Positions 8,052-55,145 of a DNA stretch of 64,000 bases are shown in pieces. The DNA lies in NCBI RefSeq assembly GCF_003334305.1, contig NZ_QOWS01000020.1; one strand, written 5' to 3'. The translations under genes and the position numbers were made by a program. A model generated the notes under the pieces. It made no database searches. It was given only the letters and a program-made list of their open reading frames with translations, and was not told the DNA's origin. The stretch's first letter is position 1; each line of letters opens with the position of its first letter. The DNA is from Escherichia coli. Its GTDB lineage: Bacteria; Pseudomonadota; Gammaproteobacteria; Enterobacterales; Enterobacteriaceae.

Positions 8052-10121
8052 ATGTCTGAGAAAACTTTTCTGGTGGAAATCGGCACTGAAGAGCTGCCAC
8101 CAAAAGCACTGCGCAGCCTGGCTGAGTCCTTTGCTGCGAATTTTACTGCGGAGCTGGATAACGCTGGCCTCGCACACGGCACCGTTCAATGGTTTGCTGC
8201 TCCGCGTCGTCTGGCGCTGAAAGTAGCTAACCTGGCGGAAGCGCAACCGGATCGTGAAATCGAAAAACGCGGCCCGGCGATTGCCCAGGCGTTCGACGCT
8301 GAAGGCAAACCGAGCAAAGCGGCAGAAGGTTGGGCGCGTGGTTGCGGTATTACCGTTGACCAGGCTGAGCGTCTGACTACCGATAAAGGCGAATGGCTGC
8401 TGTATCGCGCCCATGTGAAGGGCGAAAGCACCGAAGCACTGCTGCCGAATATGGTTGCGACTTCTCTGGCGAAACTGCCGATCCCGAAACTGATGCGTTG
8501 GGGCGCAAGCGACGTGCACTTCGTGCGTCCGGTGCACACCGTGACCCTGCTGCTGGGCGACAAAGTCATTCCGGCAACCATTCTGGGCATTCAGTCCGAT
8601 CGCGTGATTCGCGGCCACCGCTTTATGGGCGAACCGGAATTCACCATCGACAACGCCGATCAGTATCCGGAAATTCTGCGTGAGCGCGGGAAAGTCATCG
8701 CCGATTACGAAGAACGTAAAGCGAAGATTAAAGCCGATGCCGAAGAAGCAGCGCGTAAGATTGGCGGTAACGCTGACTTAAGCGAAAGCCTGCTGGAAGA
8801 AGTGGCTTCGCTGGTGGAGTGGCCGGTCGTTCTGACCGCAAAATTCGAAGAGAAATTCCTCGCGGTGCCGGCTGAAGCGCTGGTTTACACCATGAAAGGT
8901 GACCAGAAATACTTCCCGGTGTATGCGAACGACGGCAAACTGCTGCCGAACTTTATCTTCGTTGCCAACATCGAATCGAAAGATCCGCAGCAGATTATCT
9001 CCGGTAACGAGAAAGTCGTTCGTCCGCGTCTGGCGGATGCCGAGTTCTTCTTCAACACCGACCGTAAAAAACGTCTGGAAGATAACCTGCCGCGCCTGCA
9101 AACCGTGCTGTTCCAGCAACAGCTGGGTACGCTGCGTGACAAAACTGACCGCATCCAGGCGCTGGCTGGCTGGATTGCTGAACAGATTGGCGCTGACGTT
9201 AACCACGCAACCCGTGCGGGCCTGCTGTCTAAGTGTGACCTGATGACCAACATGGTCTTCGAGTTCACCGACACCCAGGGCGTTATGGGGATGCACTATG
9301 CGCGTCACGATGGCGAAGCGGAAGATGTCGCGGTGGCGCTGAATGAGCAGTATCAGCCGCGCTTTGCCGGTGATGACCTGCCGTCTAACCCGGTAGCCTG
9401 TGCGCTGGCGATTGCTGACAAGATGGATACTCTGGCGGGTATCTTCGGTATCGGCCAGCATCCGAAAGGCGACAAAGACCCGTTTGCGCTGCGTCGTGCC
9501 GCACTTGGCGTGCTGCGAATTATCGTTGAGAAGAACCTCAACCTTGATCTGCAAACGCTGACCGAAGAAGCGGTGCGTCTGTATGGCGATAAGCTGACTA
9601 ATGCCAACGTAGTTGATGATGTTATCGACTTTATGCTCGGTCGCTTCCGCGCCTGGTATCAGGACGAAGGTTATACCGTTGACACCATCCAGGCGGTACT
9701 GGCGCGTCGTCCGACTCGTCCGGCTGATTTCGATGCCCGTATGAAAGCGGTATCGCATTTCCGTACCCTGGATGCAGCTGCTGCACTGGCGGCGGCGAAC
9801 AAACGTGTATCTAACATTCTGGCGAAATCTGACGAAGTGCTGAGCGACCGCGTGAATGCCTCTACCCTGAAAGAGCCGGAAGAAATTAAACTGGCGATGC
9901 AGGTTGTGGTGCTACGTGACAAGCTGGAGCCGTACTTTGCGGAAGGTCGTTACCAGGATGCGCTGGTCGAACTGGCAGAGCTGCGTGAGCCGGTTGATGC
10001 TTTCTTCGATAAAGTGATGGTCATGGTTGATGACAAAGAATTGCGTCTCAACCGTCTGACCATGCTGGAGAAACTGCGCGAACTGTTCCTGCGCGTTGCG
10101 GATATTTCGCTGTTGCAGTAA
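8052..10121 (+). CDS. glyS: glycine--tRNA ligase beta subunit (689 aa)
   Basis: [20 protein letters not shown]...; 10 bp downstream of glyQ (glyQS operon). Confidence 0.97.
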
Positions 10122-10166: not shown

Positions 10167-10352
10167 TATCGCTAAATAATACAGCAACCTTTAATAATCT
10201 TCTGCTGAATAAAGATTATCTCATATATTAATTTTATGAGGTTTTTTTAGGATTATATCAAGGAGAAGAAACAAACTTATTAAGCTAGAATAGCCACGGG
10301 TGCTTGAGACTGTTTGTCTCAGGTATTCACCGAAAGGCAGACAGAGAAAAGC

Positions 10353-10415
10353 CCCACCTGACTATAAATCAAAGTGAGGCTACCCTATGCCTGAACACCA
10401 TAAGGTTAGCCTCTT
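10353..10415 (-). ncRNA. sokA: candidate SokA antisense RNA (type I antitoxin), approximate bounds
   Basis: On the minus strand a 7-bp hairpin (GCCUCAC/GGUGGGGC) followed by UUUUCUCU lies just upstream of and overlapping the mok start, the position expected for Sok; the ends are inferred, not mapped. Confidence 0.35.
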
Positions 10416-10683
10416 ACTCGTTGGAAATCAACACAGGGGGCTGGGAATGCCGCAGAAATATAGATTACTTTCTTTAATAGTGATTTGTTTCACGCTTTTA
10501 TTTTTCACCTGGATGATAAGAGATTCACTGTGTGAATTGCATATTAAACAGGGGAGTTATGAGCTGGCGGCATTTTTAGCCTGCAATTTAAAAGAGTTAG
10601 AGTCTTCGGCGGGAAGTTATTCCCGCCTTTCTTACGGCGTTGCGCATTCTCATTGCACCCAAATTTATTTTTCACAAAAATAA
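10387..10683 (+). CDS. mokA: mokA-like reading frame (in-frame N-terminal extension of hok)
   Basis: ORF MPEHHKVSLLLVGNQHRGLG-MPQKYR... begins 20 codons upstream of and in frame with hok, as in chromosomal mok/hok pairs. Confidence 0.5.
   Translation: MPEHHKVSLLLVGNQHRGLGMPQKYRLLSLIVICFTLLFFTWMIRDSLCELHIKQGSYELAAFLACNLKELESSAGSYSRLSYGVAHSHCTQIYFSQK
10447..10683 (+). CDS. hokA: Hok-family type I toxin (HokA-like); frame runs 78 codons here against ~50 for canonical Hok
   Basis: MPQKYRLLSLIVICFTLLFFTWMIRDSLCELHIKQGSYELAAFLACNLKE... is a Hok family sequence; the codon after ...LKE is TTA rather than a stop and the frame continues to 10683. Confidence 0.7.
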   Translation: MPQKYRLLSLIVICFTLLFFTWMIRDSLCELHIKQGSYELAAFLACNLKELESSAGSYSRLSYGVAHSHCTQIYFSQK

Positions 10684-10724: not shown

Positions 10725-10762
10725 AACAAATAAAAAAATCCCCGCCAAATGGCAGGGATCTT
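10725..10762 (-). terminator. rho-independent terminator of cspA
   Basis: Minus-strand hairpin ATCCCTGCCATTTGGCGGGAT followed by TTTTTTT downstream of the cspA stop. Confidence 0.8.
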
Positions 10763-10786
10763 AGATTCTGTGCTTTTAAGCAGAGA

Positions 10787-10999
10787 TTACAGGCTGGTTA
10801 CGTTACCAGCTGCCGGGCCTTTAGCGCCGCTTTCGATGGTGAAGGACACTTTCTGACCTTCGTCCAGAGATTTGTAACCATCGTTCTGGATAGCAGAGAA
10901 GTGTACGAACACGTCTTTAGAGCCATCGTCAGGAGTGATGAAGCCGAAGCCTTTGTCAGCGTTGAACCATTTTACGATACCAGTCATTTTACCGGACAT
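10787..10999 (-). CDS. cspA: major cold shock protein CspA (70 aa)
   Basis: [70 protein letters not shown]. Confidence 0.98.
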
Positions 11000-11225
11000 A
11001 GTGTATTACCTTTAATAATTAAGTGTGCCTTTCGGCGATATGGCGTGCTTTACAGATTTTGAAGCGTTAAAGGAATGTGCACTACGAGGGGTATCAACGA
11101 TAACTCTTGAAGGGACTTGCCTTACTACACTGCTTTAATGGTCTGTACGTCAAACCGTTGATGTGCATTAAGCCACGCATTGGCGGGTGATGCAACAATT
11201 ATTTTTCATATTTATGATTAATCGG
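11000..11225 (-). promoter_or_regulatory. cspA promoter and ~159-nt 5-prime UTR including the cold box
   Basis: Reverse complement of 11141-11158 gives ACGGTTTGACGTACAGAC (cspA mRNA 5-prime end / cold box); upstream minus-strand TTGCAT ... CTTAAT and an AT-rich UP-like region. Confidence 0.8.
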
Positions 11226-22355: not shown

Positions 22356-22432
<77 letters not shown>

Positions 22433-22519: not shown

Positions 22520-22615
22520 GACGTAGGCCTGATAAGACGCGTCAGCGTCGCATCAGGCAACGGCACCGCACTTATTGTCGGATGCGGCGTGAACGCCTTA
22601 TTCGACCTACACGCC
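22520..22615. repeat. REP / BIME-type palindromic units
   Basis: GCCTGATAAGACGCG...CGCATCAGGC and CGGATGCGGCGTGAACGCCTTAT units typical of E. coli REP elements. Confidence 0.7.
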
Positions 22616-30520: not shown

Positions 30521-30584
30521 GAGAGAAAACCCCCGCACGTTGCAGGTATGCACCTGACAACATAACGGGGGCTAATCTTGAACC
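30521..30584 (-). ncRNA. rdlD: Rdl antisense RNA (antitoxin), copy 1
   Basis: Minus-strand sequence GGUUCAAGAUUAGCCCCCGUUAUGUUGUCAGGUGCAUACCUGCAACGUGCGGGGGUUUUCUCUC ends in a GC hairpin plus U-run and matches the Rdl family as I recall it; ends approximate. Confidence 0.6.
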
Positions 30585-30637
30585 TAAACAACTCAAGAAT
30601 AGCCGCGAAACGTTGTCATTACAACACAGGCGGCTAT

Positions 30638-31003: not shown

Positions 31004-31067
31004 GAGAGAAAACCCCCGCACGTTGCAGGTATGCACCTGACAACATAACGGGGGCTAATCTTGAACC
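31004..31067 (-). ncRNA. Rdl antisense RNA, copy 2
   Basis: Identical to copy 1 over this segment. Confidence 0.6.
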
Positions 31068-31120
31068 TAAACAACTCAAGAATAGCCGCGAAACGTTGTC
31101 ATTACAACACAGGCGGCTAT

Positions 31121-31314: not shown

Positions 31315-32994
31315 TTACTGCGGGTAAGGCACCCAGTCGCCGCCGTTCAGGCGAACGTACGGTTTATCCTGGTATTGAATAACTACTGCATTTGAGTTCT
31401 CGGAGACCGGTGCTGTTTGTGGCAACCCACTGGTGAGTTTTTTCCAGTCAACATTGTCTTCGGTGAAAATCTTGCCATCAAGAACGCGAACCACCAGATC
31501 GGAGATAGCCAGGAAGCTGCTCGGTTGGTCAATGACAATCGGTGCCCCCTGATGTGGTGCCTTCATGCCGAAGAATTTCACCCCAACGGGGACGTCTGTG
31601 ATAGACGGGCTAGGGATATCACGTAGGCCAGATACCTGCATTCTGTCGCCCTTCAGCGCGCCGCCGTGTTCCGGCACCACGACCACCATCACTTTACGAC
31701 CCGATTTCTCCAGTTCAGTAAAGAAGGCGTCCAGTTCATCAAAGAATTTCTGCGCCCGCGCTTTGTAATCCGCTGTTTTGCTGACCCCCGGATAATGGTT
31801 GCCGTCATGCAGTGGAAGCGTGTTGTAGAACGTGGCACTACGGCTATTTTTATCTTTTTCGGTAACGTCCAGCCAGCGGTTAAGCACGGCGGTATCGTCA
31901 TAAACCGGCGAACCATCAAAGCCCAGCAAAATAACCGGCAGATTTGTTTGATCCATCAATTCAGTCTGCATGCCGCCATTTTCGCGAACTTCTTTCAAAA
32001 AACCGCCGAACTGGCCGTTATGCCCCATCATCAGGTGCTGGGTAAAGCCCAGTTTCGAAAGGTTATCAAACAGATAGCAGTCGTTATTTGCCGGTTGATA
32101 CAGATTAGTGTGCGAAGTCTGCCCGCAGCTGGCGCGCAGTAAACGGATCGCCGCCGGGCCACTGTAGGAGGTGGCGGAGTTAAAGTTCTTGAACTCAATA
32201 TCGAAATGCGACCACAGTGGATGCGACATCAACCCGGCGGCTTCTATATCCGACCAGGAAAGCGAACAGATGTTAATCACCAGTAGTTCAAATGGCTGAG
32301 CATCAGCGGGCAGCGAAGACGGGAAGGTCGATTTACGTTTCGCCTCCGCGTTATAGAAATTATTCAGCCAGGCGTTAAGGTTCGCCGTTGTTGGCGGTGC
32401 AGTTTGTGCGGGCATATCACCCACTACCGGTGCGCCACCCGTCGCCGCAACGGTTGCCGCTGCGTTACCACCCGTCGTTGTTACAGTGGTCGTCGGTTGT
32501 CCGGCTGGCCACAAGGAGAAACTTGGTCCCGCCAGGGTAAGTACGCTCAGCCATAGCAGTATGGCAACCACAAAAACGGTAATGCGAATCCATTGTGACA
32601 GGAATAACCAGGCCACTAATAAAACAAAAATGGCCCCAATCATCTGCCAGTTAATAAAGCGTGTGACAAGGTCGATTAAATAATCGGTACTGAACCCCGC
32701 CACCTGCGAACCCTGGCTCATTATGCTTTCCGGGCCAGGCAACCAGGTGTCATGCCAGAACAAAGCAAAGCCGATCGGCAGGGCAATCCAGTGGCGCAAG
32801 CGATGCAGGCTGTAGCGCGGAATGGGCATCAGCAGAAACGCGGCAAACACCAAATTGAGGAGCGGATGGAAGTTAAGATATCCCGCCCACAACAGGCCGA
32901 ACTTAACCAGAAAATAGAAGTTCCAGCCGGAAAGGCCGCGCCAGTATTGCCAGAGGGAAGAAGGCATGGCGGTATTTTGTGTAAATTGAGTCAT
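31315..32994 (-). CDS. bcsG: cellulose biosynthesis protein BcsG (559 aa)
   Basis: [42 protein letters not shown]...; N-terminal TM segments, Thr/Gly-rich linker, alkaline-phosphatase-like C-terminal domain. Confidence 0.93.
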
Positions 32995-33182
32995 TTTTTG
33001 GTTGCCCTAGCTTTTTCCGTGCGGCGTAACGTCCCGGCCGGTTTAACATAACGAGGTTTAGCAAAGAACAAACGTAAGGTGTCGCGAATGCGTCGCAAAG
33101 AGTGCCGCGCCAGATAGCCCAGCGGGAAAAATATCAGTGCGCAAACGACAATAATTTCAATGATATCGCTGATGGTCATCAT
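32991..33182 (-). CDS. bcsF: cellulose biosynthesis protein BcsF (63 aa)
   Basis: [63 protein letters not shown]; single TM; 4-bp overlaps with bcsE and bcsG. Confidence 0.9.
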
Positions 33183-34750
33183 GATGAGCGCTCCACAGCA
33201 TCATCTAACAGTCGCATGGGTTCTGGTATTCGTCGCCAGTGGCGACCATCGTGCTCGGCATTGATGACCGGTTTAGAACTTTGCGTTAAAGGCAGCGGCA
33301 TGCCCCATTGTTCTGGGGCAAGCAAGCGCATCTGCACCAGCTCGGCACTGATTTGATCATCTTCAAACCAGACCATACGGTTTGAGAAAATGTCGCCAGT
33401 AGGCAATGGGAAAATATGATTCAACGCGGTATCCAGATCGTTAATCCGACAGAATGAGAGAAACAGCACCAGCCGATTACCGCCAATGGTCATGATATCG
33501 CCGGTACGGTTAGGGCGACACAGCGTCAGGGCTTGTTCAACGCGGATACCCGGTACCGGACGTAGGGCAACCAGAACGCCTTTACCGTGGGCAGGCAAGA
33601 GAGGGTTATTCATCATGTTGTTGACGGCATTACAGAACACATCCCACTTCTGGAAACCACGCAGTTTGAGCGGCTGGGTCATTGACAGCAAGGTAGTGAT
33701 ATCTTCCGGCACATAGCGACTAAACTTCTGCCCTTGCACGCTTTCGATCATCGTCAGACAACGGGAGAGTGGCGCATTCCACGGAATAACCATATTTGCA
33801 CCGCAGGCCAATAACAAACGTTCATCGGTGGCGCGCAGGCTAGCGGTATTTTCCCGCACGAGGATTTTCATCGCACTACCGCGCTGGCGACGCAGGGTAT
33901 GAATGCTGCGGGCCAGTGGCTCGATTTGCGCATTTTGCTGTAAAGAAAAGACCACCGTCGCCGCCTGAGCGGTACGGGCTTCATTGAACAGGACTTCGTT
34001 ATTGTTGAACAGTTGCCAGTGTTCCGATAGCGGCGGCGCACCTTCCAGTACAGCAACATTACTCAGAATGCGTTTTTCGTCGCTGCGTGGTTGGATCTCC
34101 GCCTCTTCGCTTTGAACTAATGTCCAGATACCATTTTGTTGCTGAACGCTAAGCTGCTGACGGGCGCTGACCCCTTTTTCGTTGCACCAGAAGGCAATAT
34201 CCAGCAAATGTTGGTCACCCTGAAAACGCAAACTGGCAAGACCAAAAAGTGAACGGTATTCCTCAAGCAACAATGAAAATTGTTTATCGTTATTATTTCC
34301 GGGATTAATTACCAAAAGCGAACAATGGTTTAACCTGCTCCATTTATTCATTTTATCCAACCATGAGCGAAGCCGCTCGGCAGGAATGTTTTGCCATGCG
34401 TTATTTGCCCAAACAAGAATAAAAAGGTAATTATGGGGATCAATAGAACACTGCAAATCACGGGTCAAATAGTATAGACCTTTTTCATGATTTAGCATTG
34501 AAAATAATTTTATTTTTTCCGGCCCTTGAGAATCATCTAATTGAAAGATTTTCGCCGGATCGCTGTCCATGCTAATGACCGCGACGTGTGCGGTTTCAGC
34601 CTGGGATGCAATTGTTTGATTCGCCAGACTGATAGCATCTTCATGGCGATCGACGTTAAACCACCAGACGCCGCCTGCTGGCATATGTCGCAGCTCATCC
34701 CATAATGATGAGATACCGATAGAGAATACAGGGTCCACAATGTCCCTCAT
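33179..34750 (-). CDS. bcsE: cellulose biosynthesis protein BcsE (523 aa, c-di-GMP-binding GIL-domain protein)
   Basis: [32 protein letters not shown]...; first gene of bcsEFG, divergent from bcsR. Confidence 0.93.
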
Positions 34751-35222: not shown

Positions 35223-35975
35223 ATGGCCGTACTGGGATTGCAGGGGGTGCGGGGAGGCGTGGGGACAACAACCATCACCGCCGCATTAGCCTGGTCATTA
35301 CAAATGTTGGGAGAAAATGTTCTGGTGGTCGATGCCTGCCCGGACAACTTGTTGCGCCTGTCATTTAATGTTGATTTTACCCACCGTCAGGGCTGGGCCA
35401 GAGCGATGCTGGATGGCCAGGACTGGCGTGACGCTGGGTTGCGCTACACCTCGCAGCTCGATTTGCTGCCTTTTGGTCAGTTATCCATTGAAGAACAAGA
35501 AAATCCACAGCACTGGCAAACCCGGCTGAGCGATATTTGCTCCGGCTTACAGCAACTAAAAGCCAGCGGGCGTTACCAGTGGATTTTAATCGACTTACCG
35601 CGTGATGCCTCGCAGATAACCCACCAGCTGCTGAGTTTGTGCGATCACTCGCTGGCAATCGTCAATGTGGATGCCAACTGCCATATCCGACTGCATCAGC
35701 AAGCGCTGCCGGATGGCGCACATATTTTGATTAATGACTTCCGTATTGGCAGTCAGGTTCAGGACGATATTTACCAGCTTTGGTTGCAAAGCCAGCGCCG
35801 ATTACTGCCGATGCTCATTCATCGTGATGAAGCGATGGCTGAATGCCTGGCGGCTAAGCAACCAGTAGGTGAATATCGCAGTGATGCGCTGGCGGCTGAA
35901 GAGATACTGACGCTGGCGAACTGGTGCCTGTTGAACTACTCCGGGCTGAAAACGCCAGTCGGGAGTGCATCATGA
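35223..35975 (+). CDS. bcsQ: cellulose biosynthesis protein BcsQ (250 aa, ParA/MinD-like ATPase), uninterrupted
   Basis: MAVLGLQGVRGGVGTTTITAALAWSLQ...; codon 6 is TTG (Leu); the frame is open for the full length. Confidence 0.92.
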   Translation: MAVLGLQGVRGGVGTTTITAALAWSLQMLGENVLVVDACPDNLLRLSFNVDFTHRQGWARAMLDGQDWRDAGLRYTSQLDLLPFGQLSIEEQENPQHWQTRLSDICSGLQQLKASGRYQWILIDLPRDASQITHQLLSLCDHSLAIVNVDANCHIRLHQQALPDGAHILINDFRIGSQVQDDIYQLWLQSQRRLLPMLIHRDEAMAECLAAKQPVGEYRSDALAAEEILTLANWCLLNYSGLKTPVGSAS

Positions 35976-38590
35976 GTATCCTGACCCGGTGGTTGCTTAT
36001 CCCGCCGGTCAACGCGCGGCTTATCGGGCGTTATCGCGATTATCGTCGTCACGGTGCGTCGGCTTTCAGCGCGACGCTCGGCTGTTTCTGGATGATCCTG
36101 GCCTGGATTTTTATTCCGCTGGAGCACCCGCGCTGGCAGCGTATTCGCGCAGAACATAAAAACCTGTATCCGCATATCAACACCTCGCGTCCGCGTCCGC
36201 TGGACCCGGTCCGTTATCTCATTCAAACATGCTGGTTACTGATCGGTGCATCGCGCAAAGAAACGCCGAAACCGCGCAGGCGGGCATTTTCAGGTCTGCA
36301 GAATATTCGTGGACGTTACCATCAATGGATGAACGAGCTGCCTGAGCGCGTTAGCCATAAAACACAGCATCTTGATGAGAAAAAAGAGCTCGGTCATTTG
36401 AGTGCCGGGGCGCGGCGGTTGATCCTCGGTATCATCGTCACCTTCTCGCTGATTCTGGCGTTAATCTGCGTTACTCAGCCGTTTAACCCGCTGGCGCAGT
36501 TTATCTTCCTGATGCTGCTGTGGGGGGTAGCGCTGATCGTACGGCGGATGCCGGGGCGCTTCTCAGCGCTAATGTTGATTGTGCTGTCGCTGACTGTTTC
36601 TTGCCGTTATATCTGGTGGCGTTACACCTCTACGCTGAACTGGGACGATCCGGTCAGCCTGGTGTGCGGGCTTATTCTGCTCTTCGCCGAAACGTACGCG
36701 TGGATTGTGCTGGTGCTCGGCTACTTCCAGGTAGTATGGCCGCTGAATCGTCAGCCGGTGCCATTGCCGAAAGATATGTCGCTGTGGCCGTCGGTGGATA
36801 TCTTTGTCCCGACTTACAACGAAGATCTCAACGTGGTGAAAAATACTATTTACGCCTCGCTGGGTATCGACTGGCCGAAAGACAAGCTGAACATCTGGAT
36901 CCTCGATGACGGCGGTAGGGAAGAGTTTCGCCAGTTTGCGCAAAACGTGGGGGTGAAATATATCGCCCGTACCACTCATGAACATGCGAAAGCGGGCAAC
37001 ATCAACAATGCGCTGAAATATGCCAAAGGCGAGTTCGTGTCGATTTTCGACTGCGACCACGTACCAACGCGATCGTTCCTGCAAATGACCATGGGCTGGT
37101 TCCTGAAAGAGAAACAGCTGGCGATGATGCAGACGCCGCACCACTTCTTCTCGCCGGACCCGTTTGAACGCAACCTGGGGCGTTTTCGTAAAACGCCGAA
37201 CGAAGGCACGCTGTTCTATGGTCTGGTGCAGGATGGCAACGATATGTGGGACGCCACTTTCTTCTGCGGTTCCTGTGCAGTAATTCGTCGCAAACCATTG
37301 GATGAAATTGGCGGTATTGCTGTCGAAACGGTAACCGAAGATGCGCACACGTCTCTGCGCCTGCACCGTCGTGGCTACACCTCTGCATATATGCGTATTC
37401 CGCAGGCGGCGGGGCTGGCGACCGAAAGTCTGTCGGCGCATATCGGTCAGCGTATTCGCTGGGCACGCGGGATGGTGCAAATCTTCCGTCTCGATAACCC
37501 GCTTACCGGTAAAGGGCTGAAATTCGCCCAGCGGCTGTGCTACGTCAACGCCATGTTCCACTTCTTGTCGGGCATTCCACGACTGATCTTCCTGACTGCG
37601 CCGCTGGCGTTCCTGCTGCTTCATGCCTACATCATCTATGCGCCAGCGTTGATGATCGCCCTGTTCGTGCTGCCGCATATGATCCATGCCAGCCTGACCA
37701 ACTCCAAGATCCAGGGCAAATATCGCCACTCTTTCTGGAGTGAAATCTACGAAACGGTGCTGGCGTGGTATATCGCACCACCGACGCTGGTGGCGCTGAT
37801 TAACCCGCACAAAGGCAAATTTAACGTCACCGCCAAAGGTGGACTGGTGGAAGAAGAGTACGTCGACTGGGTGATCTCGCGGCCCTACATCTTCCTTGTC
37901 CTGCTCAACCTGGTGGGCGTTGCGGTAGGCATCTGGCGCTACTTCTATGGCCCGCCAACCGAGATGCTCACCGTGGTCGTCAGTATGGTGTGGGTATTCT
38001 ACAACCTGATTGTTCTTGGCGGCGCAGTTGCAGTATCGGTAGAAAGCAAACAGGTACGCCGATCGCACCGCGTGGAGATGACGATGCCCGCGGCAATTGC
38101 CCGCGAAGATGGTCACCTCTTCTCGTGTACCGTTCAGGATTTCTCCGACGGTGGTTTGGGGATCAAGATCAACGGTCAGGCGCAGATTCTGGAAGGGCAG
38201 AAAGTGAATCTGTTGCTTAAACGCGGTCAGCAGGAATACGTCTTCCCGACCCAGGTGGCGCGCGTGATGGGTAATGAAGTTGGGCTGAAATTAATGCCGC
38301 TCACCACCCAGCAACATATCGATTTTGTGCAGTGTACGTTTGCCCGTGCGGATACATGGGCGCTCTGGCAGGACAGCTACCCGGAAGATAAGCCGCTGGA
38401 AAGTCTGCTGGATATTCTGAAGCTCGGCTTCCGTGGCTACCGCCATCTGGCGGAGTTTGCGCCTTCTTCGGTGAAGGGCATATTCCGTGTGCTGACTTCT
38501 CTGGTTTCCTGGGTTGTATCGTTTATTCCGCGCCGCCCGGAGCGGAGCGAAACGGCACAACCATCGGATCAGGCTTTGGCTCAACAATGA
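35972..38590 (+). CDS. bcsA: cellulose synthase catalytic subunit BcsA (872 aa)
   Basis: Track ORF trimmed to MSILTRWLLIPPVNARL...; glycosyltransferase family 2 with QRIRW motif and C-terminal PilZ domain; ATGA overlap with bcsQ. Confidence 0.95.
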   Translation: MSILTRWLLIPPVNARLIGRYRDYRRHGASAFSATLGCFWMILAWIFIPLEHPRWQRIRAEHKNLYPHINTSRPRPLDPVRYLIQTCWLLIGASRKETPKPRRRAFSGLQNIRGRYHQWMNELPERVSHKTQHLDEKKELGHLSAGARRLILGIIVTFSLILALICVTQPFNPLAQFIFLMLLWGVALIVRRMPGRFSALMLIVLSLTVSCRYIWWRYTSTLNWDDPVSLVCGLILLFAETYAWIVLVLGYFQVVWPLNRQPVPLPKDMSLWPSVDIFVPTYNEDLNVVKNTIYASLGIDWPKDKLNIWILDDGGREEFRQFAQNVGVKYIARTTHEHAKAGNINNALKYAKGEFVSIFDCDHVPTRSFLQMTMGWFLKEKQLAMMQTPHHFFSPDPFERNLGRFRKTPNEGTLFYGLVQDGNDMWDATFFCGSCAVIRRKPLDEIGGIAVETVTEDAHTSLRLHRRGYTSAYMRIPQAAGLATESLSAHIGQRIRWARGMVQIFRLDNPLTGKGLKFAQRLCYVNAMFHFLSGIPRLIFLTAPLAFLLLHAYIIYAPALMIALFVLPHMIHASLTNSKIQGKYRHSFWSEIYETVLAWYIAPPTLVALINPHKGKFNVTAKGGLVEEEYVDWVISRPYIFLVLLNLVGVAVGIWRYFYGPPTEMLTVVVSMVWVFYNLIVLGGAVAVSVESKQVRRSHRVEMTMPAAIAREDGHLFSCTVQDFSDGGLGIKINGQAQILEGQKVNLLLKRGQQEYVFPTQVARVMGNEVGLKLMPLTTQQHIDFVQCTFARADTWALWQDSYPEDKPLESLLDILKLGFRGYRHLAEFAPSSVKGIFRVLTSLVSWVVSFIPRRPERSETAQPSDQALAQQ

Positions 38591-45589: not shown

Positions 45590-47578
45590 TTGCGCGTAAG
45601 TCGCTCGTTAACAATCAAGCAGATGGCAATGGTGGCAGCCGTTGTCCTGGTGTTCGTTTTTATTTTTTGCACCGTTTTGCTGTTCCATCTGGTCCAGCAG
45701 AATCGCTATAACACGGCTACGCAACTGGAAAGCATTGCTCGCTCTGTCCGCGAACCCTTATCTTCAGCTATTTTGAAAGGCGATATTCCCGAAGCGGAAG
45801 CTATTCTTGCCAGCATTAAACCGGCAGGCGTGGTCAGCCGTGCCGATGTAGTGCTGCCTAACCAGTTCCAGGCGCTGCGTAAAAGTTTTATTCCAGAGCG
45901 CCCGGTGCCGGTAATGGTTACTCGCCTGTTTGAGCTACCGGTTCAAATCTCGCTGGGCGTTTACTCGCTCGAACGTCCGGCAAACCCGCAGCCAATTGCC
46001 TATCTGGTACTACAGGCGGATTCCTTCCGTATGTATAAGTTCGTGATGAGCACCCTCTCAACGTTAGTGACCATTTACTTACTTTTGTCGCTTATCCTGA
46101 CCGTCGCCATCAGCTGGTGCATTAACCGCCTGATTTTGCATCCGTTACGCAATATTGCTCGCGAACTTAACGCCATCCCAGCCCAGGAGCTTGTTGGTCA
46201 CCAACTGGCATTACCGCGTCTGCATCAGGACGATGAAATCGGTATGTTGGTGCGCAGTTACAACCTCAACCAGCAATTGCTGCAGCGCCATTATGAAGAA
46301 CAGAACGAAAATGCGATGCGCTTCCCGGTGTCGGATTTGCCGAACAAAGCCTTGCTGATGGAGATGCTGGAGCAGGTTGTCGCGCGTAAACAAACCACCG
46401 CGCTGATGATCATCACCTGTGAAACCCTGCGTGATACTGCGGGCGTGCTGAAAGAGGCGCAACGAGAAATTCTGCTGCTGACGCTGGTGGAAAAACTCAA
46501 ATCGGTACTGTCGCCACGTATGATCCTCGCGCAGATTAGCGGTTATGACTTTGCTGTCATTGCCAACGGTGTACAGGAACCGTGGCACGCAATCACCTTA
46601 GGTCAGCAAGTGCTCACTATCATGAGCGAGCGCCTGCCGATTGAACGTATTCAACTCCGTCCGCACTGTAGCATTGGCGTGGCGATGTTCTACGGCGATC
46701 TCACCGCCGAACAGCTTTACAGTCGCGCTATTTCTGCGGCATTTACCGCTCGCCATAAAGGCAAGAATCAGATTCAGTTCTTTGATCCGCAGCAGATGGA
46801 AGCCGCCCAGAAGCGGTTGACGGAAGAGAGTGATATCCTTAATGCACTGGAAAATCATCAGTTTGCTATTTGGTTACAGCCACAGGTCGAGATGACCAGC
46901 GGAAAACTGGTCAGTGCGGAAGTGTTACTGCGTATCCAGCAACCGGATGGCAGTTGGGACCTGCCGGATGGCTTAATCGATCGCATTGAGTGCTGTGGGC
47001 TGATGGTTACCGTCGGTCACTGGGTGCTGGAAGAGTCCTGTCGATTGCTTGCAGCCTGGCAAGAGCGCGGCATTATGCTGCCCTTGTCGGTAAACCTCTC
47101 TGCGCTGCAACTGATGCACCCAAATATGGTGGCGGATATGCTGGAACTGTTAACCCGCTATCGCATTCAGCCGGGAACACTGATTCTGGAAGTGACAGAA
47201 AGCCGACGTATTGACGACCCTCATGCTGCGGTGGCAATCCTCCGTCCGCTGCGCAATGCCGGAGTTCGGGTGGCGCTGGATGATTTCGGCATGGGCTACG
47301 CAGGGCTGCGTCAGCTGCAGCATATGAAATCGTTGCCAATCGACGTACTGAAAATCGACAAAATGTTTGTTGCAGGCTTGCCGGAAGATAGCAGCATGAT
47401 TGCTGCAATTATCATGCTGGCGCAGAGCCTGAACTTACAAATGATTGCCGAAGGCGTGGAGACTGAAGCACAACGCGACTGGCTGGCAAAAGCGGGCGTT
47501 GGTATTGCCCAGGGCTTCCTTTTTGCTCGCCCACTCCCTATTGAAATCTTCGAAGAGAGTTACCTGGAAGAAAAGTAG
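45590..47578 (+). CDS. pdeK: c-di-GMP phosphodiesterase PdeK (membrane HAMP-GGDEF-like-EAL protein)
   Basis: Track ORF begins at a TTG (662 aa); in-frame ATG codons at 45623 and 45629 are alternative starts; C-terminal EAL domain ends ...[18 protein letters not shown]. Confidence 0.85.
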
Positions 47579-50859: not shown

Positions 50860-51789
50860 TTACGCTGGCATCGCCTCACGCGGGATAATCGCGCCGCGAT
50901 ACTGAATAACGGTACTTGCGGTCAGGTGCCCGCGTTTCGCCGCGTTTTCCGCACTGCCGCCCGTCAAACGTACCGCCAGATAACCGGCGCTGAAAGAGTC
51001 GCCAGCTGCGGTGGTATCGATCACTTTTTCTTTCGGCAGTTTCACCGCCGGAACATCCACTAACCCTTCGCCAGCAATGGACACCAGGCAAGAATCCGCC
51101 CCGCGTTTCACCACCACTTCTTTCACGCCCGCGTTATGGGTGCGCGCAATGACGTCTTCCACCGGCTGTTGACCCCACAGCGCGTCTTCATCGTCCAGCG
51201 TCAGGAAGGCGATATCCGTGCATTCCAGCATTTGTTGGTACACCTGCTGTGTCTCTTCTTTGCTGGCCCACAGGCGCGGACGATAGTTATTGTCGAAAAT
51301 CACTTTTCCGCCGTTGGCGCGGCATTCGCGCAGCAGGGAAAGCAGCTTTTCGCGGCTGGTCGGGCTTAAGATCGCCAGGCTAATCCCGCTCAGGTAGAGA
51401 TAATCGAAATTCGCCAGCTCTTCGCAAATCGCCGCAGACTGCTCACTCTCCAGCCAGAATTTGGCGGCGGCTTCGTTCCGCCAGTAGTAGAACGTACGCT
51501 CGCCGGTGCTGTCGGTTTCAATGTAGTAAAGGCCCGGCAGACGGTTTTCCATCCGTTGGGTCAGGGAAGTATCAACGTTCTCGCCGTGCCAGGCGTCCAG
51601 CATTTGCTGGCTAAAACTGTCCGTTCCCAGCGCCGTTACGTAATGAACGGTTAATGCCGCAGGATCGACCTGACGGGCGATATAGACGGAAGTGTTCAGG
51701 GTATCGCCGCCGAAACCGCGCTTAACGTCCGCGCCTTTCTCGGAAAGCTCAATCATGCATTCGCCAATCACGGCAATCTTTTTGGACAT
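50860..51789 (-). CDS. kdgK: 2-dehydro-3-deoxygluconokinase (309 aa)
   Basis: Track ORF trimmed to MSKKIAVIGECMIELSEKGADVKRGFGGDTLNTSVY...; PfkB-family sugar kinase. Confidence 0.93.
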   Translation of the reverse strand: MSKKIAVIGECMIELSEKGADVKRGFGGDTLNTSVYIARQVDPAALTVHYVTALGTDSFSQQMLDAWHGENVDTSLTQRMENRLPGLYYIETDSTGERTFYYWRNEAAAKFWLESEQSAAICEELANFDYLYLSGISLAILSPTSREKLLSLLRECRANGGKVIFDNNYRPRLWASKEETQQVYQQMLECTDIAFLTLDDEDALWGQQPVEDVIARTHNAGVKEVVVKRGADSCLVSIAGEGLVDVPAVKLPKEKVIDTTAAGDSFSAGYLAVRLTGGSAENAAKRGHLTASTVIQYRGAIIPREAMPA

Positions 51790-51945
51790 AGTCGTGAACC
51801 TGATCTGTAAAAAATTAGCGTTAGTTTGCGCTGTGGTGGTTTGCTGGTCAACCATATTAAAACAGTGTTCCATTATTTTTTTGAGCCAGAACGTATTCCT
51901 GAAAGATTCCGTTGTGGAGTGAGGAAATTTACCCCGGCCAGGCGG

Positions 51946-51972
51946 TAAAGTTCTGCCCTTGCGCGCCGATAA
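51946..51972 (+). promoter_or_regulatory. sigma-28 (FliA)-type promoter upstream of pdeH
   Basis: TAAA (51946-51949), 15-bp spacer, GCCGATAA (51965-51972), 48 bp upstream of the pdeH ATG. Confidence 0.7.
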
Positions 51973-52020
51973 TCTTTGTCGAGTCCGGGCAGCATCACTT
52001 TTAAACACAGGACATCTTTG

Positions 52021-52788
52021 ATGATAAGGCAGGTTATCCAGCGAATAAGCAACCCTGAAGCAAGCATCGAGAGCTTGCAGGAACGGCGTTTTTGGTTGCA
52101 GTGTGAGCGTGCTTACACCTGGCAGCCGATCTATCAAACATGCGGACGGTTAATGGCCGTGGAGCTATTAACGGTGGTCACGCATCCCTTGAACCCTTCG
52201 CAACGCCTGCCGCCGGATCGCTATTTTACTGAAATCACCGTCAGCCATCGGATGGAGGTTGTGAAAGAGCAGATTGATTTGCTGGCGCAAAAAGCCGACT
52301 TCTTTATAGAGCACGGCCTGCTGGCATCGGTCAATATTGATGGCCCTACGCTCATCGCCCTGCGTCAGCAACCAAAAATCCTGCGCCAGATTGAGCGTCT
52401 TCCCTGGCTGCGTTTCGAACTGGTGGAGCATATCCGTCTGCCGAAAGATTCAACCTTTGCCTCGATGTGTGAATTTGGCCCGCTGTGGCTGGATGATTTT
52501 GGTACCGGGATGGCAAATTTCTCTGCACTAAGTGAAGTGCGTTATGACTACATCAAAATCGCGCGAGAACTGTTTGTGATGCTGCGTCAGTCGCCGGAAG
52601 GACGCACACTCTTTTCTCAGCTTTTACATCTAATGAATCGCTATTGTCGCGGGGTGATTGTCGAGGGCGTAGAAACGCCGGAAGAGTGGCGTGATGTTCA
52701 GAACTCGCCCGCATTCGCCGCACAAGGCTGGTTTCTTTCACGCCCGGCACCGATAGAAACGCTGAATACGGCGGTTCTGGCGCTATAA
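52021..52788 (+). CDS. pdeH: c-di-GMP phosphodiesterase PdeH (EAL domain, 255 aa)
   Basis: Track ORF trimmed to MIRQVIQRISNPEASIESLQERRFWLQCERAYTWQPIYQ...; stand-alone EAL domain. Confidence 0.92.
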   Translation: MIRQVIQRISNPEASIESLQERRFWLQCERAYTWQPIYQTCGRLMAVELLTVVTHPLNPSQRLPPDRYFTEITVSHRMEVVKEQIDLLAQKADFFIEHGLLASVNIDGPTLIALRQQPKILRQIERLPWLRFELVEHIRLPKDSTFASMCEFGPLWLDDFGTGMANFSALSEVRYDYIKIARELFVMLRQSPEGRTLFSQLLHLMNRYCRGVIVEGVETPEEWRDVQNSPAFAAQGWFLSRPAPIETLNTAVLAL

Positions 52789-52857
52789 GCTGCCTCATTT
52801 TCCGCCTGGCTGGACTATCTTTAGGACTGGCACAGGAAGAATATGAGGAAGCGAACG

Positions 52858-54918
52858 ATGAGCAAGGCAGGCAAAATAACCGCTGCGATTTCAGTGGCTT
52901 TCTTGTTGTTGATTGTCGTGGCGATCATTTTGATTGCAACTTTTGACTGGAATCGACTCAAACCGACCATCAACCAGAAAGTCTCTGCGGAGTTGAATCG
53001 TCCGTTCGCTATCCGTGGCGATCTGGGCGTGGTGTGGGAGCGGCAAAAACAAGAAACTGGCTGGCGCAGCTGGGTGCCGTGGCCCCATGTACACGCGGAA
53101 GACATCATTCTTGGCAATCCACCGGATATTCCCGAAGTCACGATGGTGCATTTGCCACGCGTAGAGGCAACGCTGGCCCCGCTGGCGCTGCTGACCAAAA
53201 CGGTCTGGCTGCCGTGGATCAAGCTCGAAAAGCCCGACGCGCGCCTGATTCGCCTCTCCGAAAAGAACAATAACTGGACGTTTAATCTCGCCAACGATGA
53301 TAACAAAGACGCGAATGCAAAGCCGTCGGCATGGTCGTTTCGGCTGGATAATATTCTTTTCGATCAAGGGCGGATCGCCATTGATGACAAAGTAAGCAAA
53401 GCGGATCTGGAGATTTTTGTTGATCCGTTAGGCAAGCCGCTGCCGTTCAGCGAAGTTACTGGATCGAAAGGTAAAGCGGATAAAGAAAAGGTGGGCGATT
53501 ACGTTTTTGGCCTGAAGGCGCAGGGACGTTATAACGGTGAACCGCTCACGGGTACGGGAAAAATAGGCGGTATGCTGGCGCTGCGTGGCGAAGGGACGCC
53601 GTTTCCGGTACAGGCTGATTTCCGCTCTGGTAACACCCGTGTTGCTTTTGATGGCGTCGTGAATGACCCAATGAAGATGGGCGGTGTCGATTTACGGCTT
53701 AAATTTTCTGGCGATTCACTGGGTGATCTCTATGAACTGACGGGCGTTCTGCTGCCCGATACCCCGCCATTTGAAACGGATGGTCGGCTGGTAGCGAAAA
53801 TCGACACTGAAAAATCGTCGGTCTTTGATTATCGCGGTTTTAATGGGCGAATTGGCGATAGCGATATCCACGGTTCTCTGGTCTACACCACCGGAAAGCC
53901 ACGACCAAAACTGGAAGGTGATGTCGAGTCGCGGCAATTGCGGCTGGCGGACCTGGGACCGTTAATTGGCGTTGACTCCGGGAAAGGGGCAGAAAAGTCG
54001 AAACGGTCTGAACAGAAGAAGGGCGAAAAAAGCGTTCAGCCTGCGGGCAAAGTGCTGCCTTATGACCGCTTCGAAACCGATAAATGGGACGTTATGGATG
54101 CCGATGTTCGCTTCAAAGGGCGGCGCATTGAGCATGGCAGTAGCCTGCCGATTAGCGATCTTTCTACTCATATCATCCTCAAAAATGCTGACCTGCGCCT
54201 GCAACCGCTGAAATTTGGCATGGCGGGCGGCAGCATTGCGGCGAATATTCATCTGGAAGGCGATAAAAAGCCGATGCAGGGGCGGGCAGATATTCAGGCT
54301 CGTCGACTGAAACTGAAAGAACTGATGCCCGATGTGGAACTGATGCAGAAGACGCTGGGGGAAATGAACGGTGACGCGGAACTACGCGGTAGCGGTAACT
54401 CGGTGGCAGCACTTTTAGGCAACAGTAACGGCAACCTGAAACTGTTGATGAATGACGGGCTGGTGAGCCGCAACCTGATGGAGATTGTTGGGCTGAATGT
54501 CGGCAACTACATTGTCGGTGCGATATTTGGTGACGATGAGGTGCGGGTGAACTGCGCGGCGGCGAATCTGAATATTGCCAACGGCGTGGCGCGCCCGCAG
54601 ATTTTTGCTTTCGATACTGAGAACGCGTTGATTAATGTTACCGGCACGGCAAGTTTTGCTTCGGAACAGCTGGATTTGACTATTGATCCGGAGAGTAAAG
54701 GGATTCGGATTATCACACTGCGTTCGCCGCTGTATGTGCGTGGGACGTTTAAAAATCCGCAGGCTGGGGTGAAAGCCGGGCCGTTGATTGCCCGTGGTGC
54801 TGTTGCTGCGGCACTGGCAACGCTGGTAACACCGGCGGCGGCGTTACTGGCACTGATCTCACCTTCCGAAGGGGAGGCTAATCAGTGTCGGACGATATTG
54901 TCGCAGATGAAGAAGTGA
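52858..54918 (+). CDS. yhjG: AsmA-family protein YhjG (686 aa)
   Basis: MSKAGKITAAISVAFLLLIVVAIILIATFDWNRLKPTINQ...; N-terminal TM anchor and large periplasmic domain. Confidence 0.9.
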   Translation: MSKAGKITAAISVAFLLLIVVAIILIATFDWNRLKPTINQKVSAELNRPFAIRGDLGVVWERQKQETGWRSWVPWPHVHAEDIILGNPPDIPEVTMVHLPRVEATLAPLALLTKTVWLPWIKLEKPDARLIRLSEKNNNWTFNLANDDNKDANAKPSAWSFRLDNILFDQGRIAIDDKVSKADLEIFVDPLGKPLPFSEVTGSKGKADKEKVGDYVFGLKAQGRYNGEPLTGTGKIGGMLALRGEGTPFPVQADFRSGNTRVAFDGVVNDPMKMGGVDLRLKFSGDSLGDLYELTGVLLPDTPPFETDGRLVAKIDTEKSSVFDYRGFNGRIGDSDIHGSLVYTTGKPRPKLEGDVESRQLRLADLGPLIGVDSGKGAEKSKRSEQKKGEKSVQPAGKVLPYDRFETDKWDVMDADVRFKGRRIEHGSSLPISDLSTHIILKNADLRLQPLKFGMAGGSIAANIHLEGDKKPMQGRADIQARRLKLKELMPDVELMQKTLGEMNGDAELRGSGNSVAALLGNSNGNLKLLMNDGLVSRNLMEIVGLNVGNYIVGAIFGDDEVRVNCAAANLNIANGVARPQIFAFDTENALINVTGTASFASEQLDLTIDPESKGIRIITLRSPLYVRGTFKNPQAGVKAGPLIARGAVAAALATLVTPAAALLALISPSEGEANQCRTILSQMKK

Positions 54919-54954
54919 TGAGGTTGGATTGTGTTTGCTGGTGAGTTCGGGAGC

Positions 54955-55145
54955 AGCGTGTTCCCCTCACCCTAACCCTCTCCCCAAAGGGGCGAGGGGA
55001 CTGTTTTGTGCGTGTTGAAACAACGAGTACCGCTTTTCCGTTCACTTTCTGGGGGAGGGCTGTTATGTTCGCGATATAACATCTCGCTCCGCTTTTCTCC
55101 CTCTCCCTTTCAGGGAGAGGGCTGGGGTGAGGGTGGCTGCCCACA
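54955..55145. repeat. pair of GC-rich hairpin repeat units in inverted orientation (unclassified intergenic repeat)
   Basis: Unit 1 CCCCTCACCCTAACCCTCTCCCCAAAGGGGCGAGGGG (~54962-55000) and unit 2 TCCCTCTCCCTTTCAGGGAGAGGGCTGGGGTGAGGG (~55097-55132) are near reverse complements; between convergent yhjG and yhjE. Confidence 0.6.

Follow-up and report, generated by a model that had tools for sequence, protein, structure and literature searches.

Gene organisation of the locus

The window, by which we mean the whole stretch of 64,000 nucleotides of Escherichia coli DNA that was analysed, contains bcsG, bcsF and bcsE (−), then bcsR, bcsQ, bcsA, bcsB, bcsZ and bcsC (+), followed by hmsP (= pdeK), dctA and yhjJ (+), kdgK (−), pdeH (+), yhjG (+) and yhjE, and runs onwards to gadA. 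Strain E2865 has an annotated region that is collinear with positions 31599–64000 (99.8% identity). The 1.3 kb around the pdeH promoter matches at 100% identity in O26/O103-type strains such as E2865, in which RefSeq places kdgK, pdeH and yhjG. The features that bear on the promoter and on c-di-GMP are collected in Table 1; for pdeK the RefSeq start lies ~30 nt earlier than the one listed, near 45591.

Table 1. Promoter elements and genes of the pdeH region, in window coordinates
Feature	Coordinates	Strand	Remarks
bcsE, c-di-GMP-binding cellulose biosynthesis protein	33179..34750	−	Pfam full-length CBP_BcsE
bcsA, cellulose synthase catalytic subunit	35972..38590	+	Pfam GT2 and C-terminal PilZ
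pdeK (annotated hmsP), membrane phosphodiesterase, directly 3′ of bcsC	45623..47578	+	Pfam GAPES3-HAMP-GGDEF-EAL
kdgK, divergent from pdeH; bounds the 231-bp intergenic region	50860..51789	−	
Sigma-28 −35 element TAAAGTTC	51946..51953	+	7/8 against consensus TAAAGTTT
Spacer, 11 nt (15 nt from TAAA to GCCGATAA)	51954..51964	+	Length constant, sequence free
Sigma-28 −10 element GCCGATAA	51965..51972	+	8/8 against consensus
Moderately conserved block TTGTCGAGTCC (TTGACGAGT in most genera)	51976..51986	+	At least 85% conserved at most columns
Shine-Dalgarno region ACAGGA (AGGA 8 nt before ATG)	52007..52012	+	Nearly invariant across genera
pdeH (yhjH), 255 aa, stand-alone EAL c-di-GMP phosphodiesterase	52021..52788	+	RefSeq on identical DNA; Pfam EAL, residues 26–242, E = 5.5e-32

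The gene directly 3′ of pdeH, yhjG (52843–54918), belongs to the AsmA family and is not a c-di-GMP gene. Its start is ambiguous, the longest open reading frame beginning at ATG 52843 and the RefSeq model at ~52858. No intrinsic terminator was found between the pdeH stop (52788) and yhjG (52789–52857), thus FliA-dependent read-through into yhjG is possible. We note that yhjG is absent from Escherichia albertii NBRC 107761 (locus L005) through a deletion of ~2.1 kb, equivalent to ~52850–55100, which spares pdeH and its sigma-28 promoter.

Several RNA features were located elsewhere in the window with Rfam. Just beyond bcsG there are two copies of the rdlD antitoxin RNA, at 30524–30589 and 31007–31072 (−), which score 91 bits each and lie 483 nt apart. 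The two copies imply that the ldrD/rdlD type I toxin-antitoxin locus has been duplicated in tandem; in K-12 we take this locus to be single-copy at this position. The remaining Rfam matches are a sok-type antitoxin RNA (10298–10449, +), a cspA 5′ UTR thermoregulator (10732–11159, −), a tRNA (22356–22429, +) and the REP-derived naRNA4 (22526–22607, −).

A sigma-28 motif upstream of pdeH

The initial annotation had described a sigma-28 promoter of the form TAAA-N15-GCCGATAA located 48 bp upstream of pdeH, and both the coordinates and the spacing proved to be exact. Positions 51946–51972 (+) read TAAAGTTCTGCCCTTGCGCGCCGATAA, that is TAAA (51946–51949), 15 bases and then GCCGATAA (51965–51972). 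Precisely 48 nt separate the end of the motif from the pdeH ATG (52021–52023). The motif is intergenic, lies inside the 231-bp kdgK–pdeH region and is oriented sense to pdeH. A search of both strands of the 64 kb returned this single match to TAAA-N15-GCCGATAA, with 0.01 expected from dinucleotide-preserving shuffles. Compared with the extended sigma-28 consensus, TAAAGTTT-N11-GCCGATAA, the site agrees at 15 of 16 positions, the one mismatch being a C at position 8 of the −35 element where the consensus has T, and it is the only match in the window at three or fewer mismatches.

The site was also scored with a log-odds weight matrix, constructed in a leave-one-out manner from the 24 other FliA ChIP-seq motifs of Fitzgerald et al. 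2014 (PMC4183435), with yhjH excluded. It scored 22.9 bits and the runner-up position in the window 15.9 bits. The maxima of 100 shuffled windows had a mean of 14.6 and a top value of 21.4 bits; the positions ranked 2–8 in the window (12.6–15.9 bits) fall inside the range of these shuffles.

Leader and transcription start

In sigma-28 promoters transcription usually starts 7–9 nt past GCCGATAA. From this usual distance we infer that pdeH transcription starts at about 51978–51982, within the conserved block at 51976–51986. This block can be written in degenerate form as TTG(A/T)CGAGTCC and stands outside the canonical sigma-28 consensus; Atlantibacter has lost it and Siccibacter has an altered form. 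It probably marks the start site and initial transcribed region. No mapped pdeH 5′ end was found in the accessible papers, and the supplements of Kim et al. 2012 have no yhjH or b3525 entry. Folding of the leader (51979–52040) gave no significant structure (z = +1.0) and thus no ground for a riboswitch or thermosensor.

Conservation of the promoter

GTDB species-representative genomes were scanned for PdeH, which yielded 80 loci from about 20 enterobacterial genera with PdeH 67–92% identical; upstream DNA was available for 79 of them. The genera include Escherichia, Citrobacter, Salmonella (subspecies arizonae and diarizonae), Enterobacter, Lelliottia, Leclercia, Kosakonia, Atlantibacter, Siccibacter, Franconibacter, Pseudocitrobacter and others. 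All sampled taxa are Enterobacteriaceae, and the 80 loci exclude Yersinia, Serratia, Erwinia, Pectobacterium and the non-flagellate Klebsiella and Raoultella.

Wherever upstream DNA was available, in 79 loci, the motif TAAAGTT[C/A]-N11-GCCGATAA is present. TAAAGTT, GCCGATAA and the 11-nt spacing are invariant throughout (79/79), and position 8 of the −35 element is either C or A. The motif lies 47–57 nt from the pdeH start in 78 of these loci. The exception is Citrobacter amalonaticus S646 (locus L007), in which it sits 236 nt 5′ of the start because of a 186-nt insertion in the leader; a first impression that this genome had no motif was dismissed once the motif was located beyond the insertion. 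The inserted segment (~186 nt, at ~9796–9981 of that locus) separates the sigma-28 promoter from the pdeH Shine-Dalgarno sequence and has at its two ends 19-nt inverted repeats with 84% complementarity. It resembles a miniature transposable element and extends the leader to ~230 nt.

An alignment of 75 distinct kdgK–pdeH intergenic sequences gave a sharp footprint. The −35 and −10 blocks are invariant, and both the sequence of the spacer and the flanks vary freely. The 55 nt 5′ of the −35 element show no conservation in this alignment, which fits a promoter that does not require an activator.

The same alignment contains a further conserved block, at ~51846–51888, which belongs to the kdgK side of the intergenic region. 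It contains ATTAAAACAGTGTTCCATT (51856–51874) followed by a run of T, a segment that is almost invariant in the 75 sequences. ATTAAAACAGTGTTCCATT agrees at 15 of 19 positions with AATGAAACATTGTTTCATT, which we take to be the KdgR operator palindrome. Situated ~70 nt 5′ of the kdgK start, it is probably a KdgR operator/promoter serving kdgK; it and the pdeH promoter stand back to back and do not overlap.

Within E. coli, the 1.3 kb around the promoter has a match in 5423 of the 5426 complete genomes. The 101-nt promoter region is found in 5422 of the 5426, with an identity of 99% or more in 5090. Changes in the sampled E. coli variants are confined to the spacer, to position 8 of the −35 element (C to A, as in Kosakonia) and to bases farther upstream; the −10 element GCCGATAA is unchanged.

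We note that PdeH is the fastest-evolving protein of its neighbourhood, at 67–92% identity compared with 90–99% for DctA and 77–99% for KdgK in the same genomes, and that the promoter core is still invariant. In one genome labelled E. coli, SCPM-O-B-8794 (locus L004), PdeH is 91% identical and its neighbours 99%. A recombinant or locally divergent pdeH allele was considered for this genome and rejected, a sliding window giving 88–97% identity over the whole region. The genome is a divergent Escherichia lineage in which pdeH and pdeK evolve faster.

Published evidence for FliA control

FliA binding at this site and the dependence of pdeH on FliA are taken here from the literature on K-12, whose site differs from that of the window by one spacer base. 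The MG1655 28-mer was checked on a K-12 genome and has A where the window has G51961. In FliA ChIP-seq a peak with the motif TAAAGTTCTGCCCTTACGCGCCGATAAT was assigned to yhjH, and with a fold-above-threshold score of 67 it is among the six strongest of the genome (Fitzgerald et al. 2014, PMC4183435, Table 2). In the same study the RNA-seq value for yhjH was 511 in motile MG1655 and only 2 once fliA was deleted, a difference marked as significant. Zhao et al. 2007 (PMC1935009) found yhjH to be 9.6-fold down in a fliA deletion and 1.9-fold up on FliA induction, and credit the first report to Ko and Park 2000. A pdeHp::gfp fusion has served as a reporter of sigma-FliA activity (Klauck et al. 2018, PMC6119863). 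According to Pesavento and Hengge 2012 (PMC3367168), yhjH is a class III gene that is down-regulated at entry into stationary phase, upon which c-di-GMP rises, flagella slow and csgD is induced.

The motif, its rarity, its placement and its conservation are direct observations on the DNA, and taken together with the published binding and expression data they identify 51946–51972 as the core promoter of pdeH (yhjH), recognised by FliA (sigma-28) RNA polymerase, with a probability of about 0.97. The class 3 assignment made in the initial annotation agrees with the K-12 ChIP-seq, RNA-seq, microarray and reporter data as well as with the phylogenetic footprint. Given the ChIP-seq, RNA-seq and reporter papers, the element and its function are therefore already known, experimentally characterised and textbook knowledge, and for pdeH the comparison of wild type with a fliA mutant and the reporter experiments are in essence already published. 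What the present analysis adds is a cleaner phylogenetic footprint (79 loci, ~20 genera) and a caution on the clustering of c-di-GMP genes; otherwise it contains no new biology.

The c-di-GMP genes of the window

The initial annotation had also noted that pdeH, pdeK, bcsE and the PilZ-containing bcsA lie within ~20 kb. Pfam bears out the domains of these proteins, and the span from bcsE to pdeH, with bcsA and pdeK inside it, measures 19,610 bp. As a description the clustering of c-di-GMP turnover with its cellulose effectors thus stands; a functional meaning for pdeH is weakly supported, since the nearness of this gene is within chance (P ~0.2) and three unrelated genes part it from pdeK. PdeK and DgcC are a local sink and source of c-di-GMP at the cellulose synthase, whereas PdeH is a cytosolic global sink present at up to ~6000 molecules per cell (Richter et al. 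2020, PMC7397504). Only the adjacency of pdeK and bcs has a recognised functional meaning. pdeH forms a separate transcription unit with its own promoter, divergent from kdgK, and it has no co-transcription or shared regulatory region with bcs and pdeK.

Alternative explanations

Weak FliA-like matches do arise by chance, as the positions ranked 2–8 in the window illustrate with scores inside the shuffle range, and one could suppose that the pdeH motif is another such match, devoid of promoter function, with pdeH transcribed from elsewhere. An exact match is expected only 0.01 times, however, and its 22.9 bits exceed the maxima of all 100 shuffles. None of the 79 loci departs from the two blocks or their spacing although neighbouring bases drift freely, and for this very site FliA ChIP-seq and loss of expression in a fliA deletion have been published. 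A chance match is already refuted for practical purposes and has next to no probability left. The promoter might instead be real and pdeH receive in addition, under some other conditions, a significant FliA-independent input from a sigma-70 or sigma-S promoter, or from a repressor or other factor at the TTGACGAGT block. The conservation of 51976–51986 beyond the canonical sigma-28 elements does lack an explanation in terms of those elements. This block overlaps the expected start site, however, which could by itself explain its conservation, and Atlantibacter lacks the block while Siccibacter has an altered form of it. The 55 nt 5′ of the −35 element are unconserved, and expression of yhjH drops from 511 to 2 without FliA. 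A scan of 51500–53000 gave no sigma-70 promoter match, so no alternative pdeH promoter is proposed; this result and the fall in RNA-seq signal suggest that pdeH has essentially no promoter besides the sigma-28 one. We consider a second input of significant strength unlikely. Slightly less likely still is that the block is an undescribed regulatory element that adds FliA-independent control, for example as an operator or as an initial-transcribed sequence tuning promoter escape or the stability of the mRNA 5′ end.

The surroundings of pdeH raise a separate question, namely whether selection for function has grouped pdeH, pdeK, bcsA and bcsE within 20 kb, as a ‘c-di-GMP island’ in which the position of pdeH matters for signalling. 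The gene order bcsC–pdeK–dctA–yhjJ–kdgK<>pdeH–yhjG is kept in nearly all 80 loci (the context of locus L074 differs), many species have pdeK next to bcs, and the action of PdeK at the cellulose synthase is local. Every gene of the region is alike in this synteny, though, so that its conservation is not specific to c-di-GMP. Between pdeK and pdeH lie dctA, yhjJ and kdgK, which are unrelated, together with a divergent promoter region, and the literature portrays PdeH as a cytosolic sink for the whole cell and not as a local partner of Bcs. In Atlantibacter (loci L070, L073 and L075) the segment pdeK–dctA–yhjJ is inverted and found 3′ of yhjG, while the kdgK<>pdeH–yhjG core and its promoter are unchanged. 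When 25–29 GGDEF/EAL genes were placed at random, two starts fell within 6.4 kb of each other in 58–68% of trials, and a further such gene lay within 20 kb on either side of a given locus (here bcs) with P ~0.19–0.22. A statistically significant pdeH–pdeK–bcs cluster was accordingly rejected, the nearness being within chance expectation, and we regard a selected island that includes pdeH as very unlikely.

Proposed mechanism

In the reading that we prefer, FliA binds two blocks 11 nt apart, TAAAGTTC at −35 and the composite GCCGATAA at −10, and transcription would begin some 7–9 nt past GCCGATAA to give an unstructured leader of ~40 nt with a good Shine-Dalgarno sequence. A promoter recognised by FliA therefore makes pdeH a class 3 flagellar gene. 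FlhDC activates fliA, and upon completion of the hook-basal body the anti-sigma factor FlgM is exported and FliA freed from it, whereupon pdeH is expressed alongside the flagellin, motor and chemotaxis genes. By degrading c-di-GMP, PdeH holds the global pool low and keeps the YcgR motor brake off; low c-di-GMP also blocks the c-di-GMP-dependent induction of csgD, curli and cellulose. At stationary-phase entry flagellar expression stops, PdeH drops and c-di-GMP climbs. The pdeH promoter in this way couples flagellar assembly to low c-di-GMP, and a master phosphodiesterase that is made only while flagella are being built sets up the motile-to-sessile switch. Both in E. coli and in Salmonella, work since 2000 has established this coupling of flagella and c-di-GMP through pdeH.

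Comparison with known systems

The closest counterpart is the FliA promoter of yhjH/pdeH in MG1655 (Zhao 2007; Fitzgerald 2014), which is the same element at the same locus, equally far from the ATG and with kdgK and yhjG likewise on either side. It differs from the promoter in the window by strain only, the one changed spacer base being at a non-conserved position. The FliA ChIP signal of pdeH (67) equals that of ycgR and is between those of tar (57) and fliA (91) (Fitzgerald 2014, PMC4183435).

The class 3 flagellar promoters (fliC, tar, motA, tsr, flgM and ycgR) share with pdeH the bipartite TAAAGTTT-N11-GCCGATAA arrangement and have, like it, no conserved upstream activator site. pdeH differs from the canonical class 3 genes in its product, which is a signalling enzyme and not a structural, motor or chemotaxis component.

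An analogous logic can be seen in Pseudomonas putida with BifA, a GGDEF-EAL protein and, unlike PdeH, a different family member. In strain KT2440 FliA is reported to drive this c-di-GMP phosphodiesterase, which favours swimming (PMC5300878). FliA control of BifA is reported as only partial, and the flagellar hierarchy differs. The pdeK–bcs part of the clustering in the window is explained by the local DgcC–PdeK–BcsB module (Richter et al. 2020, PMC7397504). PdeH stands outside this module and sets the global background level of c-di-GMP.
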